From contig CAVXLD010000001.1 of NCBI GenBank assembly GCA_963762565.1, positions 128,001 through 192,000 on the forward strand: DNA of 64,000 nt. Direction: 5' to 3'. This DNA is from an uncultured Verrucomicrobiae bacterium. Its GTDB lineage: Bacteria; Verrucomicrobiota; Verrucomicrobiia; Chthoniobacterales; JAFAMB01. The notes under the pieces were generated by a model that was given only the letters and a program-made list of their open reading frames with translations, was not told the DNA's origin and made no database searches. Shown here piece after piece: positions 51,169 through 54,586 of the stretch (the first letter of the stretch is position 1; every line of letters starts with the position of its first letter). The translations under genes were made by a program, and so were the position numbers.

Positions 51169-51918
51169 ATGCCGATCAGGAAAGAATCCGGGAATCGCGT
51201 TTTTAGTTATTTTTGCCGGTATTTGGTGCGTCTGATCTTTTCTTGGTCGTGTCGAGTCCATCGGCTCCGAAAGAGTCAAGAGTACCCGAGTGGACCGTTT
51301 ATTGTGGTGGCAAACCACATCAGCCATTTCGATCCGCCAATGCTCGGATGCTGGTTTCCGCGGTACATCGACTGGATGGCCATGGAGGAATTATATAGTA
51401 AACGCTGGAGCGCATGGCTCATGCGTTCGCTCTGCGCGATTCCGGTGAAACGGGCTGCCGGTGATTTCGCTTCCTTACGGGCCGCGCTGGGTCGACTGAA
51501 GCTTGGCCGAGTTGTCGGCATTTTTCCGGAGGGCGGCATTCGGGCGGGGACAGGATCGATTCTAGAAGGAGCGCCGATTTGGGGAGGGTTTGCCGGGCTC
51601 AGCATCCTCTCGGATAAACCGGTCGTTCCCTGTGTTATCATCGGGACTGATCGTCTTTACCGGCCTAAGAATTGGCTGCCATTCCGCCGTGTAGAAATAT
51701 GGATGGGGTTCGGCGAGGCGATTCAGCCTCCAAACGATGTCCCGCGGGAACAAGCTCAAGCGGTTTTAGTCGACCGTGTCAGAGCATCCCTAAATGCACT
51801 CAAAGAAGAGCTGGTCCGACACTACGGGCTTCGTCCCGATGACTTGCCTCAAACACCGCAGTACCGGAAAAGAGAAAACGCTACGCCGACAAACAGAAAG
51901 GGCGGTTCGGCTGGCTAG
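51169..51918 (+). CDS. 1-acyl-sn-glycerol-3-phosphate acyltransferase (PlsC family)
   Basis: NHISHFD, FPEG motifs. Confidence 0.88.
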   Translation: MPIRKESGNRVFSYFCRYLVRLIFSWSCRVHRLRKSQEYPSGPFIVVANHISHFDPPMLGCWFPRYIDWMAMEELYSKRWSAWLMRSLCAIPVKRAAGDFASLRAALGRLKLGRVVGIFPEGGIRAGTGSILEGAPIWGGFAGLSILSDKPVVPCVIIGTDRLYRPKNWLPFRRVEIWMGFGEAIQPPNDVPREQAQAVLVDRVRASLNALKEELVRHYGLRPDDLPQTPQYRKRENATPTNRKGGSAG

Positions 51919-51940
51919 CTCGAAGATTTTTGGAAGAAAA

Positions 51941-52032
51941 TGGGTTGGGTGGGACTCGAACCCACAACCAACCCCGAACTCCGAAATTCTTCGCGAGCAG
52001 GAGCTTTCGGGGCTGCTCTACCATTGAGCTAC
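51941..52032 (-). repeat. tRNA-Lys-derived repeat (D arm to 3' end) with anticodon loop replaced by a nested hairpin
   Basis: Identical to the tRNA at 51941-51972 and 52012-52032. 51973-52011 reads CCCGAA[CTCCGAAATTCTTCGCGAGCAGG]AGCTTTCGGG instead of GCCTTAAAAGGGC. Confidence 0.9.
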
Positions 52033-52283
52033 ATCTCGGGACCGCTCTTGAGTAGGTAGATCGCGATCTGCGGATTCTTTTTCGCTTTGAGTTGGCGCTC
52101 AAGCAGTCTCGCCGACCGAATGTCCGGCATTTGCTTGGTAGCGACGAGCTCTAAGGGCAGACCAAACCGTCGGGTAGAATGGACCTTGCCACGTTGGTGT
52201 TCGCCGAAGCGCCGATCGAGATTTTCGGTCGACCCGATATAGTGCCCGCCACAAGACCCACGAATGATATAGACCCACGCCAT
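52029..52283 (-). CDS. Stand-alone GIY-YIG nuclease (84 aa)
   Basis: MAWVYII...HYIGST.NL.RR..EH..G...ST......ELV......ARLLERQLK; stop TAG lies within the tRNA-derived repeat. Confidence 0.88.
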   Translation of the reverse strand: MAWVYIIRGSCGGHYIGSTENLDRRFGEHQRGKVHSTRRFGLPLELVATKQMPDIRSARLLERQLKAKKNPQIAIYLLKSGPEM

Positions 52284-52295
52284 CCTAACCAAAAA

Positions 52296-52367
52296 TGGGT
52301 TGGGTGGGACTCGAACCCACAACCAACGCCTTAAAAGGGCGCTGCTCTACCATTGAGCTACCAACCC
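52296..52367 (-). tRNA. tRNA-Lys (TTT)
   Basis: GGGTTGGTAGCTCAATGGTAGAGCAGCGCCCTTTTAAGGCGTTGGTTGTGGGTTCGAGTCCCACCCAACCCA folds as a cloverleaf; no encoded CCA. Confidence 0.95.
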
Positions 52368-52407
52368 AAAAAATCTGCATTCCATTCTTCCCCTTGGCAT
52401 CCCTAAG

Positions 52408-52461
52408 CCACAACCAACCCCGAAAGCTTTCGGGGCTGCTCTACCATTGAGCTACCAACCC
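52408..52461 (-). repeat. tRNA-Lys-derived repeat (5' end to T-stem) with anticodon loop replaced by a palindrome
   Basis: Minus strand GGGTTGGTAGCTCAATGGTAGAGCAGC-CCCGAAAGCTTTCGGG-GTTGGTTGTGG, then divergence. Confidence 0.9.
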
Positions 52462-52537
52462 CGGGAAAACGGACTGGAATACTATAGCTAAAACGGAATG
52501 CCGCAAGCGGTTTTGAGCTGCGGTTTGCGTGAAGTCG

Positions 52538-53116
52538 TCAAAACAGATCCTGAAGCCGGACCTCGACATCCGGGAACGCTTGGAAAGCAACGATCCCCTG
52601 AGAGACGACAGTACCTTCATATTTGCCGTTCGCATTCAGGCGAAATACTCGGACGAACGCATTCGCCAGATCGATGATCCAATACTCTGGAATGCCAGCG
52701 CTCTGGTAAGCCTGGAGCTTTTTTTCAGAATCGTATTTCAGGCTGGTATCTGACACCTCGACTACGAGATAGATTTGTTGCGGCAAAATGTGTTGGCGTC
52801 GGGTTCCTGCATCTGTCGTGAATAGAACCAAATCGGGCTGCAGTTCATTAAAGTCCGGGATCGGAATCGGCCGTCCCGGACCAACCTTGAACCGGCCTTT
52901 CTTTTGCTCGCCGAAGATTTCGTTGAGCCTTTCCAGGATAAATTGATGCTCAGGACCGATCGGCGCCATTTGGATAAGGAGACCATCGAACAGTTCAACC
53001 CGGTCGGTTGGTTGCAGAACACCACTTTCGCCAAGCCTATGGTACTCCGCCACGGTGAGCCGTCGTAAGGAGAAGGCAGCTTCCTCAGCAGGGTTGGACA
53101 AAACTGATGAAGCCAT
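52538..53116 (-). CDS. Uma2 (DUF820) family endonuclease-like protein
   Basis: LTVAEYHRL, RVELFDG, QPD, LVVEVSDTSL.YD...K...Y..AGIPEYWIID. Confidence 0.92.
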   Translation of the reverse strand: MASSVLSNPAEEAAFSLRRLTVAEYHRLGESGVLQPTDRVELFDGLLIQMAPIGPEHQFILERLNEIFGEQKKGRFKVGPGRPIPIPDFNELQPDLVLFTTDAGTRRQHILPQQIYLVVEVSDTSLKYDSEKKLQAYQSAGIPEYWIIDLANAFVRVFRLNANGKYEGTVVSQGIVAFQAFPDVEVRLQDLF

Positions 53117-53494: not shown

Positions 53495-53701
53495 CTACCG
53501 ATAGTACCAATGGCCGTGCCGCCAGAACCGGCGATGCCAGTAAGGATGTGCATAGTAGGCGTACCCACCTGGTCCCCAGTAATAACCCGGAGCATAAAAT
53601 CCAGGTCCACTGACGACGAAGACAACCCGGGCATCGGCTGGTTTCGGGCACAACGTCAGTGCCGCGAACAACGCCGAAAGCGCGATAAGTATTCTTTTCA
53701 T
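53495..53701 (-). CDS. Small secreted Tyr/Trp/His-rich protein
   Basis: Signal peptide (PADA-), GYYWGPGG..HPYWHRRFWRHGHWYYR. Confidence 0.65.
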   Translation of the reverse strand: MKRILIALSALFAALTLCPKPADARVVFVVSGPGFYAPGYYWGPGGYAYYAHPYWHRRFWRHGHWYYR

Positions 53702-53851
53702 ATCTACAAGGTTTTTAACGTAGGACCGGGCGATGGGTTACGGGAAAAGGCGAGGCCATGCGGAGTGATGGAGTAGTGGAGCTCTGCGCTGTCGGGTTGG
53801 AGCGTGCGAAGTGGACGGTCATCGGGTGCACTTCAGCGGTGTCGTCGCGTA

Positions 53852-53873
53852 ATTCTGACGGCAGCGTCAGAAT
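53852..53873. promoter_or_regulatory. Candidate regulator binding site
   Basis: ATTCTGACG-GCAG-CGTCAGAAT inverted repeat ~95 bp upstream of the repeat-protein ATG. Confidence 0.45.
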
Positions 53874-53968
53874 CTACTGACGAGTCCGGGCAAAACGGCT
53901 CAGAAATACTTGTCCCAGGGGATGTTTTTCCGTGCGACTCAGCCGGAAAGACCGTATTGGCTGAGTTT

Positions 53969-54586
53969 ATGAAAAGATTCCGCTTGACTGCTTTCGTTGT
54001 GGCTAGCGCGCTGTCGCTAACAACCGCCAATGCGATGCCCGATTTGGGCCGCGAAACCGGGAAGTTTATCCGGCAAGAACAACCCGCACCAAAGGGAGTA
54101 CGGACTTTTGAGCCGGCTAAATTACCGGTAGCAAAAGGAAGCGATAATACAAAGGTGTCGATGGCAGTACCGCTACATCCTGGCGACGGGAATCTAGCGA
54201 TGGGAGTACCGCTTCGTCCCGGCAACGGCATTCTAGCGATGGGAGTACCGCTTCGTCCCGGCAACGGCATTCTAGCGATGGGAGTACCGCTTCGTCCCGG
54301 CAACGGCATTCTAGCGATGGGAGTACCGCTTCGTCCCGGCAACGGCATTCTAGCGATGGGAGTACCGCTTCGTCCCGGCAACGGCATTCTAGCGATGGGA
54401 GTACCGCTTCATCCCGGCAACGGCATTCTAGCGATGGGAGTACCGCTTCATCCCAGCAATGGCATTCTAGCGATGGGAGTACCGCTTCATCCCAGCAATG
54501 GCATTCTAGCGATGGGAGTACCGCTTCGTCCCGGCAACGGCATTCTAGCGATGGGAATACCGCTACGCCCACCGACGGCATTCTAG
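53969..54586 (+). CDS. Secreted protein with tandem 13-aa units (MGVPLRPGNGILA)
   Basis: Signal peptide MKRFRLTAFVVASALSLTTANA, ~42-aa linker, 10 full units plus a partial 11th. May extend to 54651 if a 1-nt deletion is corrected. Confidence 0.7.
   Translation: MKRFRLTAFVVASALSLTTANAMPDLGRETGKFIRQEQPAPKGVRTFEPAKLPVAKGSDNTKVSMAVPLHPGDGNLAMGVPLRPGNGILAMGVPLRPGNGILAMGVPLRPGNGILAMGVPLRPGNGILAMGVPLRPGNGILAMGVPLHPGNGILAMGVPLHPSNGILAMGVPLHPSNGILAMGVPLRPGNGILAMGIPLRPPTAF

Follow-up and report, generated by a model that had tools for sequence, protein, structure and literature searches.

What is an 84-aa GIY-YIG nuclease gene doing between partial copies of a tRNA-Lys gene, each of which has lost its anticodon arm to a hairpin? 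We came upon this arrangement on the minus strand of the window, by which we mean the whole 64,000-nucleotide stretch of DNA from an uncultured Verrucomicrobiae soil bacterium that was analysed. The answer that we favour, with a probability of roughly 0.55, is a minimal selfish cassette nested in the anticodon arm of a tRNA gene. In this reading the cassette comes with an intact tRNA of its own, relies on the tRNA promoter for expression and spreads through recombination that its nuclease stimulates.

Anatomy of the locus

An initial sequence-only reading had named the elements of the locus, and ARAGORN, Rfam, Pfam and identity comparisons agreed with it on the position of every one. Along the minus strand, the locus starts with the native upstream flank of tRNA-Lys (52462..52520), identified by alignment to unoccupied relatives. 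It is a promoter-like stretch (CCGCTTGCGG ... TATAGT) with TATAGT at 52486-52481, and the sequence around this box is kept 5' of tRNA-Lys in the aligned relatives. The flank may act as a promoter, and we put it no more strongly because a simple sigma-70 consensus and terminator scan made no minus-strand promoter call upstream of the locus. It adjoins the stranded 5' half of the original tRNA-Lys (positions 1-27; 52435..52461; 100% identity to the intact tRNA). This is followed by hairpin H (CCCCGAAAGCTTTCGGGG, 52418..52435), an exact palindrome which substitutes for the anticodon arm and forms the left end of the insert, and by a copy of tRNA positions 44-53 recognized by sequence identity (52408..52417). 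The first C of H is also tRNA position 27, and the whole 5' copy (52461-52408) consists of positions 1-27 and 44-53 with 100% identity. A 40-nt spacer (52368..52407), delimited by spacer comparison, leads to an intact tRNA-Lys(UUU) (52296..52367; ARAGORN; Rfam, 77.9 bits), the sole copy of this tRNA among the 43 tRNAs of the window's genome, G000. After a 12-nt leader (TTTTTGGTTAGG, 52284..52295) comes the gene for the 84-aa single-domain GIY-YIG nuclease (52029..52283; Pfam PF01541, AlphaFold). The end of the gene overlaps a copy of the tRNA D arm (positions 7/8-26; 52013..52032; sequence identity), and its TAG stop (52031-52029) is U8-A9-G10 of the 3' tRNA copy. The long hairpin H' (51972..52012; DNA fold) then forms the right end of the insert. 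The 3' half of the original tRNA-Lys (positions 44-73; 51941..51971; 100% identity to the intact tRNA) adjoins the native downstream flank (51830..51940), which contains a TTTT run and the end of a convergent acyltransferase gene and matches the corresponding flank of the metagenomic contig L117. Taken as a whole, the 3' copy (52032-51941 plus TTTT) spans about tRNA positions 7-76, is 100% identical over 7/8-27 and 44-73, and is still scored as a tRNA by Rfam (33.8 bits; gathering score 29). At the E-value threshold, Rfam returned tRNA matches only for 51700-52700, plus two chance-level plastid ones. The earlier statements that the copies are identical to the tRNA outside the anticodon region, that they flank the nuclease gene on both sides and that one of them supplies its stop codon thus hold for the window.

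The position of the native flanks led to a different view of where the insert lies. In the window, as in the related genome G004, it is the 5' half and not the intact tRNA that directly follows the native upstream flank. With the 5' half and the 3' copy adjoining the native flanks, the anticodon arm must be where the original gene was interrupted, and the insert contains the intact tRNA. This is at odds with the earlier notion of a unit inserted behind the tRNA. The insert measures ~450 bp here, not ~350 bp as first estimated. Compared with the native flank, the spacer matches at 12 of 30 positions (shuffled level 12.1), and where a locus has more than one 5' half, its inner spacers agree with one another at 28-30 of 30 positions. 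By these comparisons the 40-nt spacer is element-borne and not native flank. The GIY-YIG gene is the only ORF inside the insert. Neither among the ORFs of the insert nor among those of its neighbors (a Uma2 gene, the acyltransferase gene and DUF2270) was an integrase, a transposase, a tyrosine or serine recombinase or a HUH (Y1) transposase found, in line with the sequence-only reading, which had noted no integrase or transposase.

That reading had also named an assembly artefact as a danger. The layout is real: unitigs from three runs of a single metagenome study, possibly on the source sample itself, tile the locus and agree with it throughout the unique junction pieces, and the identical layout is present in the one-contig genome G225. 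Contigs of run X3 contain one low-depth joint, from 52456 to 52289, and contigs of run X5 contain a variant with a short hairpin in the 3' copy.

Occupied, empty and relic sites

Empty tRNA-Lys loci, which had been proposed as something to look for in relatives, were found. Contig L117 is an empty allele with a single tRNA-Lys between the same flanks, and its downstream flank differs from that of the window at three positions in about 110 nt. Ten of the 11 metagenome contigs with the window's flank are unoccupied, and the occupied one (L114) encodes a nuclease with 85.5% identity to the window's protein. The distribution within the window's genus is patchy. G000 and G004 are occupied, the gene-free genome G003 holds a relic consisting of a decayed 5' half and the hairpin, and G001 and G005 have tRNA-Lys sites without the cassette. 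G005, likewise gene-free, holds a different insert at tRNA-Lys and, 2.4 kb downstream of its tRNA, an old fragment comprising tRNA positions 27-76. Neither hairpin nor half is present at 13 of the 15 gene-free tRNA-Lys loci in relatives; as far as these loci tell, the tRNA fragments go with the nuclease gene. In a survey of the phylum, with 13 candidates scored per genome, eight of 401 sampled genomes matched at E <= 1e-18.

Recurrence at tRNA genes

We assembled a set of 81 loci from Verrucomicrobiota, 80 with relatives of the protein and the window's own. All 81 have a tRNA 3' end directly upstream of the gene and the gene joined to a hairpin, an association of gene, tRNA and hairpin that by this count is far beyond chance. 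An intact tRNA-Lys(UUU) or tRNA-Met(CAU) is located 5-22 nt upstream on the same strand in 71 loci. In five, the tRNA is 87-202 nt away with 3'-half units in between, and in another five no tRNA was called and a truncated or edge-cut tRNA 3' part is present. With these ten loci explained, the idea of a very small GIY-YIG unit tied to tRNA genes stands. Co-transcription of the nuclease gene with the tRNA, also suggested earlier, would fit the layout.

Expressed as numbers of 5' halves, genes and 3' halves, the most frequent layouts are 1/1/1 (28 loci) and 0/1/1 (23 loci); 0/2/2 occurs in five, and 13 loci carry two or three genes in tandem. The stop codon strictly comes from tRNA-derived sequence in 35 of 91 ORFs, many more overlap the GAGCAG box, and 0-4 nt lie between the ORF end and the GAGCAG-hairpin module in most loci. 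In a tree of the 91 ORFs the tRNA label is strongly clustered, with large clades of 42 Lys and 27 Met. The Met label needs three changes, at least two of which are forced by well-supported branches, and a branch of the nuclease with 42% identity sits at tRNA-Arg(CCU). Met and Arg sites do not have Lys as their inner tRNA but Met or Arg. Locus L031 carries two genes of different clades in tandem. Around the anticodon arm, GAGCAG ... TTGGT is found in three of the 43 tRNAs of G000, namely Lys(UUU) and two Met(CAU).

Tandem units have a mosaic structure in which long tracts of identity lie next to diverged stretches, a pattern that, at the level of these alignments, shows gene conversion acting in the arrays. 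That the halves match the tRNA perfectly is consequently not by itself evidence of recent insertion, and an argument that selection is proved by identical tRNA halves in old tandem pairs was dropped, since gene conversion explains this identity. In L019, a 5'-truncated tRNA immediately precedes the cassette and borders on an ORF that matches Phage_integrase (28.5 bits, cut-off 27.1), and L048 has a similar, weaker integrase-like ORF beside a 5'-truncated tRNA (22.3 bits, below the cut-off). These truncated tRNAs were considered as marks of the nuclease cut site and abandoned as such because of the adjoining integrase-like ORFs, which seem to belong to separate, additional insertions of integrase islands in the same tRNAs. 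The upstream tRNA of L003 is likewise 5'-truncated. A function of the tRNA copies as decoys against anticodon nucleases was set aside, the copies being truncated. Odd annotations were also seen, namely pseudo-tRNAs, 'tRNA-???' calls and N-terminally extended GIY-YIG ORFs running into tRNAs.

Could the cassette be the remnant of a classical tRNA island, in which a tyrosine integrase duplicated the 3' part of the tRNA and the GIY-YIG gene is leftover cargo? The direct repeat of the tRNA 3' half that flanks the gene is att-like, integrase islands use the same tRNAs (L019; weaker L048), and the displaced fragment of positions 27-76 in G005 would suit such an origin. However, the window has no integrase, the unit, about 320-450 bp long, has been preserved as such throughout the 81 loci, the anticodon arm has given way to hairpins, and the duplication extends to the 5' halves, something that integrases are not known to cause. 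Because of this anatomy, an island remnant is disfavoured and we give it next to no weight.

The hairpins

Where the anticodon arm would be, the 5' copy has the exact palindrome CCCGAAAGCTTTCGGG (52434-52419), and in DNA H is predicted to form an 8-bp stem. H' has a length of 41 nt and consists of the outer CCCCGAA/TTCGGGG stem of H around a 27-nt insert; the long variant also occurs in L006, L055 and L099. For the whole 3' copy the DNA fold gave -19.5 kcal/mol (z -3.4). While the hairpins of the window (52435-52418 and 52012-51972) flank the gene on both sides, the 23 loci of type 0/1/1 have one on the 3' side only. An H-like hairpin was found in 81 of 81 related loci. Its 43 distinct variants have a nearly invariant stem and a variable loop, and in seven of them the seventh stem pair is a compensated C-G for A-T. 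The hairpin substitutes for the anticodon arm at the identical two junctions in Lys and Met sites, and it also replaces the anticodon arm in Arg sites, of which only 3' units were seen.

The sequence-only reading had further suggested that the element mobilises the micro-hairpins of the window. This could not be upheld: the window contains no second copy of the hairpin when up to two mismatches are allowed, and the 6.1-Mb genome has three exact copies and nine with up to one mismatch, those outside the locus being without tRNA context. Generic hairpins like CAGCCCCGAAAGCTTTCGGGGCTG are present elsewhere in the genome, again without tRNA context.

Such generic hairpins, together with gene conversion in arrays, would be expected if the locus were a passive by-product, that is, if a tRNA had been duplicated in tandem, REP-like palindromes had hit the decaying spare copies and the GIY-YIG gene were a mere neighbor. 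In that case it would be hard to see why halves with a hairpin are confined to places that have or once had the gene, with 13 of 15 gene-free sites clean, why the hairpin sits at the same two junctions in Lys and Met sites and in the 3' units of Arg sites, why the stop of the gene is fused to the hairpin module and why the whole package is common to all 81 loci. A passive origin is strongly disfavoured and appears very improbable to us.

The nuclease and its conservation

The 84-aa protein matched Pfam PF01541 over residues 1-71 (52.1 bits, cut-off 22.6, E 8.2e-14). The AlphaFold model (pLDDT 90.0, pTM 0.80) is a bare GIY-YIG fold with the predicted element order E-E-H-H-E-H-H, a three-stranded sheet with flanking helices, and its Foldseek matches include UPF0213, Slx1, HIGLE, the UvrC N-domain and I-TevI. 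With NCBIfam, the sole match was sub-threshold, to a group I intron endonuclease model that covers enzymes of the SegB kind (18.4 bits versus a cut-off of 56), and searches of PADLOC and PHROGs gave no family in either. Residues Y5, Y15, G17, R25, H29 and E62 are present in all 91 ORFs and N70 in 88 of them. Following UvrC and I-TevI, we take the two motif tyrosines, the Arg, the Glu and the Asn to be the catalytic residues. The gene is single-copy in the window's genome. Among related nuclease ORF pairs the median dN/dS was 0.21 (46 of 600 sampled pairs, those with usable dS), and old tandem pairs (L004, L006, L030) with a dS of about 0.6 had values of 0.06-0.10. Judged by these ratios, the nuclease is under purifying selection and has been kept working.

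Purifying selection over long times and catalytic residues that never vary, features shared even by the two genes of old tandem pairs, are what one would expect of a domesticated host module, in which an Ssn-type nuclease made from a tRNA operon serves the cell, e.g. in the restriction of incoming ssDNA, in repair or in defence. Such a module would be inherited mainly vertically, with losses, and the hairpin-bearing tRNA-like pieces would be recognition sites or signals for RNA processing or stability. The large clades bound to one tRNA (42 Lys, 27 Met) and the 3' copy that is still tRNA-like by its Rfam score are consistent with this view, and SsnA modulates natural transformation in Neisseria (PMC11893778). 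Against it stand the occupied, relic and clean sites within one genus, the unoccupied state of 10 of 11 environmental contigs with the flank, the matches in no more than eight of 401 sampled genomes of the phylum, at least two changes of the target tRNA, the two lineages in tandem in L031 and the lack of a PADLOC match. In addition, the breaking of the sole tRNA-Lys(UUU) gene by something that brought a replacement along is the mark of an invader. We regard a domesticated module as unlikely, although it is the alternative that we take most seriously.

A possible route of spread

In the selfish cassette that we favour, some 450 bp interrupt the resident tRNA-Lys(UUU) gene within its anticodon arm. 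Two copies of the conserved GC-rich hairpin constitute the ends of the insert, the halves of the old tRNA stay on the native flanks, and the cargo comprises the spacer, the intact replacement tRNA-Lys, the 12-nt leader and the 84-aa GIY-YIG gene. While this anatomy, the occupied and empty alleles, the repeated association with tRNA genes, the patchy occurrence and the selection on the nuclease were observed, transcription, the site of cleavage and all DNA steps of the spread are our inference. Transcription of the entire block probably starts at the old tRNA promoter, with tRNA processing releasing the nuclease message. The nuclease may then nick or cut DNA beside a hairpin located between the GAGCAG box and the variable loop of the tRNA, which could be the cassette's own hairpin or the anticodon-arm hairpin of an uninterrupted tRNA gene. 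By analogy with the Ssn nucleases, the substrate is possibly single-stranded DNA. Repair that uses an occupied copy as template and the conserved tRNA halves as arms of homology would then copy the cassette in, and repeated hits on the inner intact tRNA combined with unequal exchange and gene conversion could produce the tandem arrays. GIY-YIG enzymes are hydrolases of DNA with no known joining activity, so that every joining step must come from the host.

Several features sit uneasily with this scheme. The inner intact tRNA keeps the presumed target, so simple homing predicts self-cutting, which must be rare, restrained or harmless. The numbers of 5' halves and genes often differ (0/1/1, 0/2/2), and hence nested insertion alone does not give the arrays. 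Switches to Met and Arg are not easy to reconcile with a cassette that travels with a tRNA of its own. Moreover, classical homing endonuclease genes tend to decay after fixation. Nearly all nuclease genes found here are intact and have been under long-term purifying selection, so a host benefit fits as well.

A selfish cassette might also travel differently, as a hairpin-ended single-strand transposon. Here, the nuclease would cut ssDNA beside both terminal hairpins and release a single-stranded or circular copy, made up of a hairpin flanked by tRNA positions 8-27 and 44-53, the spacer, the tRNA and the gene. Replication forks or R-loops would expose the anticodon-arm hairpin of a tRNA gene, this copy would enter it there, and the host would join the ends. 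Indeed, two palindrome copies bound the insert with tRNA sequence on both sides of each, a circle recombining at the hairpin-bearing tRNA copy would yield exactly the observed layout, and most loci have the end of the ORF joined to the GAGCAG-hairpin module within 0-4 nt. Ssn enzymes cut only ssDNA beside their hairpin, and the authors of the Ssn paper invoke IS200/IS605 elements for the hairpin-gene-hairpin layout (PMC11893778). On the other hand, the hairpin is not spread genome-wide (three exact copies in 6.1 Mb, with tRNA context at the locus only), and no excised or circular junction was present among the metagenome contigs, which could easily miss one. It also counts against such a transposon that, to our knowledge, GIY-YIG enzymes form no covalent intermediate and have no known strand transfer activity. 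We judge this route improbable, a little more so than a domesticated module.

Implications

Somewhat short of an even chance, and thus put forward tentatively, is the wider proposal that the cassette represents a distinct class of autonomous mobile element. It would be the smallest known with an enzyme of its own (0.3-0.45 kb), residing in tRNA anticodon arms and equipped with arm-mimicking palindromes, a replacement tRNA and a bare, hairpin-guided GIY-YIG nuclease, without integrase, transposase or intron. We found no published description of such selfish DNA. If the proposal is true, tRNA genes are targeted not by integrases alone but also by a very small element of nuclease plus hairpin, and it gets round the damage to an essential single-copy gene by carrying a spare tRNA. 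The Ssn single-strand nucleases, described only recently, would be linked to a concrete selfish life cycle, and natural nuclease-hairpin pairs with defined flanks (GAGCAG, hairpin, variable loop) would be at hand for tests of how 84 amino acids read a DNA structure. The pseudo-tRNAs, the 'tRNA-???' calls and the extended GIY-YIG ORFs reading into tRNAs would be accounted for as well. With an empty allele (L117) and an occupied one (the window) at hand, the question is directly testable.

Comparison with known systems

Small GIY-YIG proteins of the UPF0213/YhbQ type (PDB 1zg2, 1ywl) are the best relatives of solved structure and resemble the 84-aa protein in size and fold. The profile E-value to 1zg2 was 1.4e-8, and Foldseek gave E 4.2e-4 with 35% identity for structures of this type. 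In the literature consulted, no tRNA or hairpin context is on record for them. SegB is larger and has a DNA-binding part, and Seg and I-TevI enzymes in general carry a separate DNA-binding domain, whereas the 84-aa protein is a bare catalytic domain.

Like the cassette, tRNA islands with tyrosine integrases insert into a tRNA gene, re-form a complete tRNA and leave the displaced part of the old one behind as a direct repeat, and both use the region of the anticodon arm. The cassette differs in that it has no integrase, measures 0.3-0.45 kb and not kilobases, duplicates the 5' half and carries hairpins at its junctions. IS200/IS605 and REP/RAYT share with it the small size, an enzyme that recognizes hairpins at or near the ends and hairpins that can outlive the gene. 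Unlike these systems with their HUH tyrosine transposases, the cassette encodes a GIY-YIG hydrolase, has the tRNA anticodon arm as its target and possesses a hairpin that is not found genome-wide. This comparison follows in part the Discussion of the Ssn paper (PMC11893778).

The closest published relatives are the hairpin-binding Ssn GIY-YIG nucleases and SegB of phages. As far as the text of the Ssn and SegB papers was searched, a tRNA-nested arrangement of nuclease and hairpin is not described there. SegB is a free-standing GIY-YIG homing endonuclease from the tRNA gene cluster of T4-type phages (PMC2330249, PMC13096335), and a 2026 abstract states that it promotes segmental amplification of anti-defence loci (PMC13096335), which recalls the tandem arrays of the cassette. 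Both genes are lodged among tRNA genes, and the cassette may promote its own inheritance as SegB does. Occupied and empty alleles of one site are another common trait, represented here by L117 and nine further empty contigs and by the occupied window, L114 and G004. Unlike the cassette, SegB is a phage protein that splits no tRNA gene and has neither hairpin ends nor partial tRNA copies.

Ssn proteins were described by Chenal et al. (2025; PMC11893778). They are single-domain GIY-YIG proteins of about 94 aa that bind a flanking hairpin, the NTS/SRM repeats, and cut ssDNA site-specifically beside it, but neither double-stranded DNA nor RNA, and the authors liken the layout of hairpin, gene and hairpin to IS200/IS605 elements. 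The authors counted as members those proteins whose top CDD match is cd10448 or which reach E < 1e-10 in blastp against N. meningitidis SsnA along 75% of its length. According to Supplementary Data 4, an ssnA homolog is present in one Chthoniobacter genome, which is a hint only. The word tRNA is absent from the main text, and in the 12 of 14 supplement files searched it appears in gene descriptions only (PMC11893778). The published SRM search pattern had no match in the 81 loci and none in the hairpin context itself. Nevertheless, the resemblance is evident: both systems combine a single-domain GIY-YIG protein of less than 100 aa (84 aa here; the Ssn size limit is <150 aa) with conserved GC-rich hairpins that have oriented flanks on both sides of the gene. 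Unlike Ssn, the cassette has a hairpin that is not amplified in the window's genome, and its hairpins lie inside partial tRNA copies, the entire unit being nested in a tRNA gene together with a replacement tRNA.

A tRNA-Lys gene split around a GIY-YIG gene

The locus lies on the minus strand of the window. A promoter-like TATAGT within the flank (52486-52481) precedes tRNA-Lys positions 1-27 (the 5' half, 52461-52435), the palindrome CCCCGAAAGCTTTCGGGG (52435-52418, its first C common to tRNA position 27) and tRNA positions 44-53 (52417-52408). After a 40-nt spacer follow an intact tRNA-Lys(UUU) (52367-52296; ARAGORN, Rfam 77.9 bits), a 12-nt leader, an 84-codon GIY-YIG ORF (52283-52029; Pfam E 8.2e-14) and a second tRNA copy from position 7/8 to 73 plus TTTT (52032-51937), in which a 41-nt hairpin replaces the anticodon arm. 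Both partial copies are 100% identical to the tRNA outside this arm, and the 3' copy is still recognized as a tRNA by Rfam (33.8 bits; gathering score 29). The 16-nt core of the palindrome is exact and occurs only once in the window even when 2 mismatches are allowed. The ORF product is confidently predicted as a bare GIY-YIG fold (AlphaFold pLDDT 90), the closest solved look-alikes being UPF0213 proteins, Slx1, HIGLE, the UvrC N-domain and I-TevI. The window's genome, G000 (6.1 Mb, 15 contigs), holds one copy of the GIY-YIG gene and one tRNA-Lys(UUU) among 43 tRNAs; the organism names attached to homologs assign it to Verrucomicrobiota. A Uma2 gene, an acyltransferase gene and DUF2270 adjoin the locus, and no integrase or transposase was found among the genes of the locus and its neighbors.

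The Uma2-family gene (putative restriction endonuclease fold; 52538-53116, minus strand) lies between the tRNA flank and a gene for a small, secreted-looking Tyr/Gly/His-rich protein (53495-53701, minus strand). It looks like another local insertion, because in the same-genus genome G005 the small-protein gene sits much closer to the tRNA. Farther on, an ORF at 53804-54586 (plus strand) encodes about 12 tandem repeats of the peptide MGVPLRPGNGILA; its opposite strand is open too.

The arrangement is not an assembly artefact. All unique junction pieces were covered with zero differences by unitigs of one study (three metagenome runs, possibly of the source sample); these unitigs break at repeats only, and the one-contig genome G225 shows the same kind of layout. 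In a low-depth contig of run X3, 52456 is joined to 52289, the tRNA 3' end and part of the leader running into a tRNA copy that starts near position 6; the contig could stem from another strain or organism with a variant lacking the gene.

Empty and occupied alleles

In same-genus genomes the native upstream flank carries the motifs CCGCTTGCG, TAGCGATACT/TATAGT and CCGTTTTCCC. It adjoins the intact tRNA in the unoccupied genomes G005 and G001 and the 5' half copy in the occupied window and G004; therefore, the anticodon arm is where the old gene was split. The added sequence, about 450 bases, spans hairpin to hairpin with the intact tRNA inside. The sequence-only reading, which had a unit of about 350 bp inserting behind the tRNA, has to be revised on both points. 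Its expectation of empty tRNA-Lys loci in relatives was borne out. Scanning metagenome contigs for the native flank joined to the tRNA 5' half yielded 11 contigs; in 10 of them an ordinary, intact tRNA-Lys comes right after the flank. One of these loci, L117, is a true empty allele: a single tRNA-Lys leads into the downstream flank that also follows the 3' copy in the window, differing at 3 of ~110 nt. In the remaining contig (L114) the flank leads into the 5' half, hairpin, spacer and tRNA, and then a gene with 85.5% identity to that of the window.

The hairpin-bearing tRNA fragments belong to the gene. At 13 of 15 gene-free tRNA-Lys loci of relatives neither a hairpin (4 mismatches allowed) nor a half copy was found. 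The other two are in G003, where a decayed 5' half and hairpin remain and the gene is absent, and in G005, where a different 2.4-kb insert leads to an old fragment (tRNA positions 27-76) that sits on the native downstream flank. The G005 insert (L083, 773-3270) comprises a split GH32 glycosidase gene and a small gene pair containing DUF2283, without an integrase, and the flank beyond the fragment resembles the native downstream flank of the window. Within the window's genus, G000 and G004 are occupied, G003 holds a relic, and no cassette is present at tRNA-Lys in G001 or G005; in G001 a gene remnant stands beside a tRNA 3' half at the end of another contig, and the tRNA of G002 was not located. 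Of 401 genomes sampled evenly across the phylum, with only 13 candidates scored per genome, 8 gave matches at E <= 1e-18.

Recurrence at tRNA genes

A word-indexed protein search returned 140 relatives at E <= 0.001, several with an N-terminal extension that is translated tRNA-Lys. A scan of one genome per species gave 166 encoding stretches; the 80 best of these were retained and, with the window locus, made up a set of 81. The proposed tRNA association held among these homologs: in 71 of the 81 loci an intact tRNA lies on the same strand 5-22 nt upstream of the gene, and in five more at 87-202 nt with intervening 3'-half units. No tRNA was called in the last five, and in all of them the 3' part of a tRNA nonetheless lies directly upstream. 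Among these five, a contig end cuts the tRNA of L070, the upstream copy in L047 is degenerate, with an intact tRNA-Lys 31 nt downstream of the gene region, and the upstream tRNAs of L003, L019 and L048 are truncated where the anticodon arm begins. Integrase-like ORFs abut the 5'-truncated tRNA just upstream of the cassette in L019 (12-1313; 28.5 bits) and adjoin one in L048 (846-2486; 22.3 bits, below the cut-off). These truncations, of tRNA-Lys in L019 and tRNA-Met in L048, look like classical islands entering the same tRNA genes as the cassette. The called tRNAs (n=76 loci) are tRNA-Lys(UUU) in 48 loci and tRNA-Met(CAU) in 28. A tRNA-Met(CAU) of G000 (C6:33597), of the type invaded in those 28 loci, is unoccupied, since that genome holds only one gene copy.

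The general layout consists of 0-3 units of [5' half 1-27, hairpin, positions 44-53, ~35 nt spacer], the intact tRNA, and 1-3 units of [leader, gene, (..)GAGCAG, hairpin, 3' half 42-76], the latter repeating every ~320 nt. Counted as 5' halves/genes/3' halves, 28 loci are of type 1/1/1, 23 of type 0/1/1 and 25 of some other type; the gene is present two or three times in 13 loci. The idea that tRNA-derived sequence supplies the stop codon is supported. In the window the TAG is U8-A9-G10 of the second copy; among 91 ORFs the stop is the TAG of TAGAGCAG in 31 and that of U8-A9-G10 in 4, and many of the remaining ORF ends overlap the GAGCAG box.

tRNA-Arg(CCU) is a third target. In G225, three tandem genes of a distant branch (42-43% identity) lie behind it (L105, 721-1800; spacing 319 nt), each followed by GAGCAGC, the hairpin CCCCGACGAAGTCGGGG and an Arg 3' half; the same genome holds a Met-linked copy with a 5' half.

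Several loci depart from the common picture. In L099 (G015, 614-1099), the sole such case among the loci seen, the gene, a long hairpin and a 3' half fragment are inverted, upstream of and divergent from tRNA-Lys. In L089 (G020) the gene is in two pieces (535-678 and 2765-2854), codons 1-30 right after tRNA-Lys and codons 31-78 inverted ~2 kb off beside a hairpin, suggesting that an inversion or insertion has interrupted the gene. Lys-type cassettes also occur on contigs binned as Acidobacteriota ('Candidatus Acidoferrum'; L036) and Nitrospirota (L044), reflecting either cross-phylum transfer or mis-binning; in the tree, L044 is placed among Udaeobacter sequences.

The hairpin and its flanks

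A hairpin is present in all 81 loci. Across 43 distinct variants with flanks, the stem CCCCGAA/TTCGGGG hardly changes, and the loop, 3-5 nt long, varies freely. Seven of the variants carry the compensated stem CCCCGAC/GTCGGGG and may be only one or two events, because their proteins cluster together; L053 has CCCCGC-AAC-GCGGGG. L006, L055 and L099 share the long hairpin found in the window's 3' copy. The hairpin is always preceded by GAGCAG(C), the 3' strand of the D stem, and followed by TTGGT at Lys and Met sites and by CGCAT at Arg sites. Only 3 of the 43 G000 tRNAs, Lys(UUU) and two Met(CAU), have GAGCAG and TTGGT around the anticodon arm, a distribution that fits recognition of these flanks. 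Generic intergenic hairpins of G000 such as CAGCCCCGAAAGCTTTCGGGGCTG (C7:345314, C7:371584, C1:84471, C5:600380 and others) contain the cassette hairpin's core without tRNA context.

Evolution of the gene and its arrays

The tRNA label clusters strongly in a tree built from 91 full ORFs (0 of 500 shuffles as low), with one clade of 42 Lys and one of 27 Met; the Met label requires 3 changes, and well-supported branches force no fewer than 2 of these. The catalytic residues are invariant, and the median dN/dS is 0.21 (46 of 600 sampled pairs, 0.05 < dS < 1.5). Tandem genes are mostly mutual nearest kin; the two exceptions are L031, whose genes come from two clades, and L006_1, which is nearer to L026_1 than to its own tandem neighbor. 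Within tandem units, identical tracts stand beside diverged ones, a mosaic that shows gene conversion at work. The spacer preceding the intact tRNA matches the spacers before inner 5' halves (28-30 of 30 positions), whereas its identity to the native flank of the outermost half is near the shuffled level in most loci; the block was therefore inherited with its own spacer.

Relation to known systems

The feature is real and recurrent, and we favor reading it as a selfish cassette nested in a tRNA gene (probability roughly 0.55). It is apparently undescribed in print: full-text literature searches turned up no account of a GIY-YIG cassette that is nested in a tRNA gene of a bacterial chromosome, the nearest hits being two papers on SegB (PMC2330249, PMC13096335) and one on the Ssn nucleases (PMC11893778). 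The present analysis contributes a Verrucomicrobiota branch with the gene downstream of an intact tRNA, a matched empty allele, flank evidence for splitting of the old tRNA gene, selection and tree data, and a direct comparison with the Ssn motif. According to their description, Ssn enzymes are ~94-aa, single-domain GIY-YIG proteins whose genes are flanked by hairpin repeats (SRM); they bind the hairpin and cut adjacent single-stranded DNA, leaving duplex DNA and RNA uncut (PMC11893778). The main text of that paper makes no mention of tRNA, across 12 of its 14 supplement files the word is confined to gene descriptions, and the published SRM search pattern had 0 matches in the 81 loci; hence we claim for the cassette nuclease a likeness to the Ssn family in how it works, and not membership. 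That the cassettes form a class of their own is a tentative proposal, to which we give somewhat less than even odds. We regard the cassette as akin to hairpin-associated small GIY-YIG nucleases and to homing-type selfish genes.
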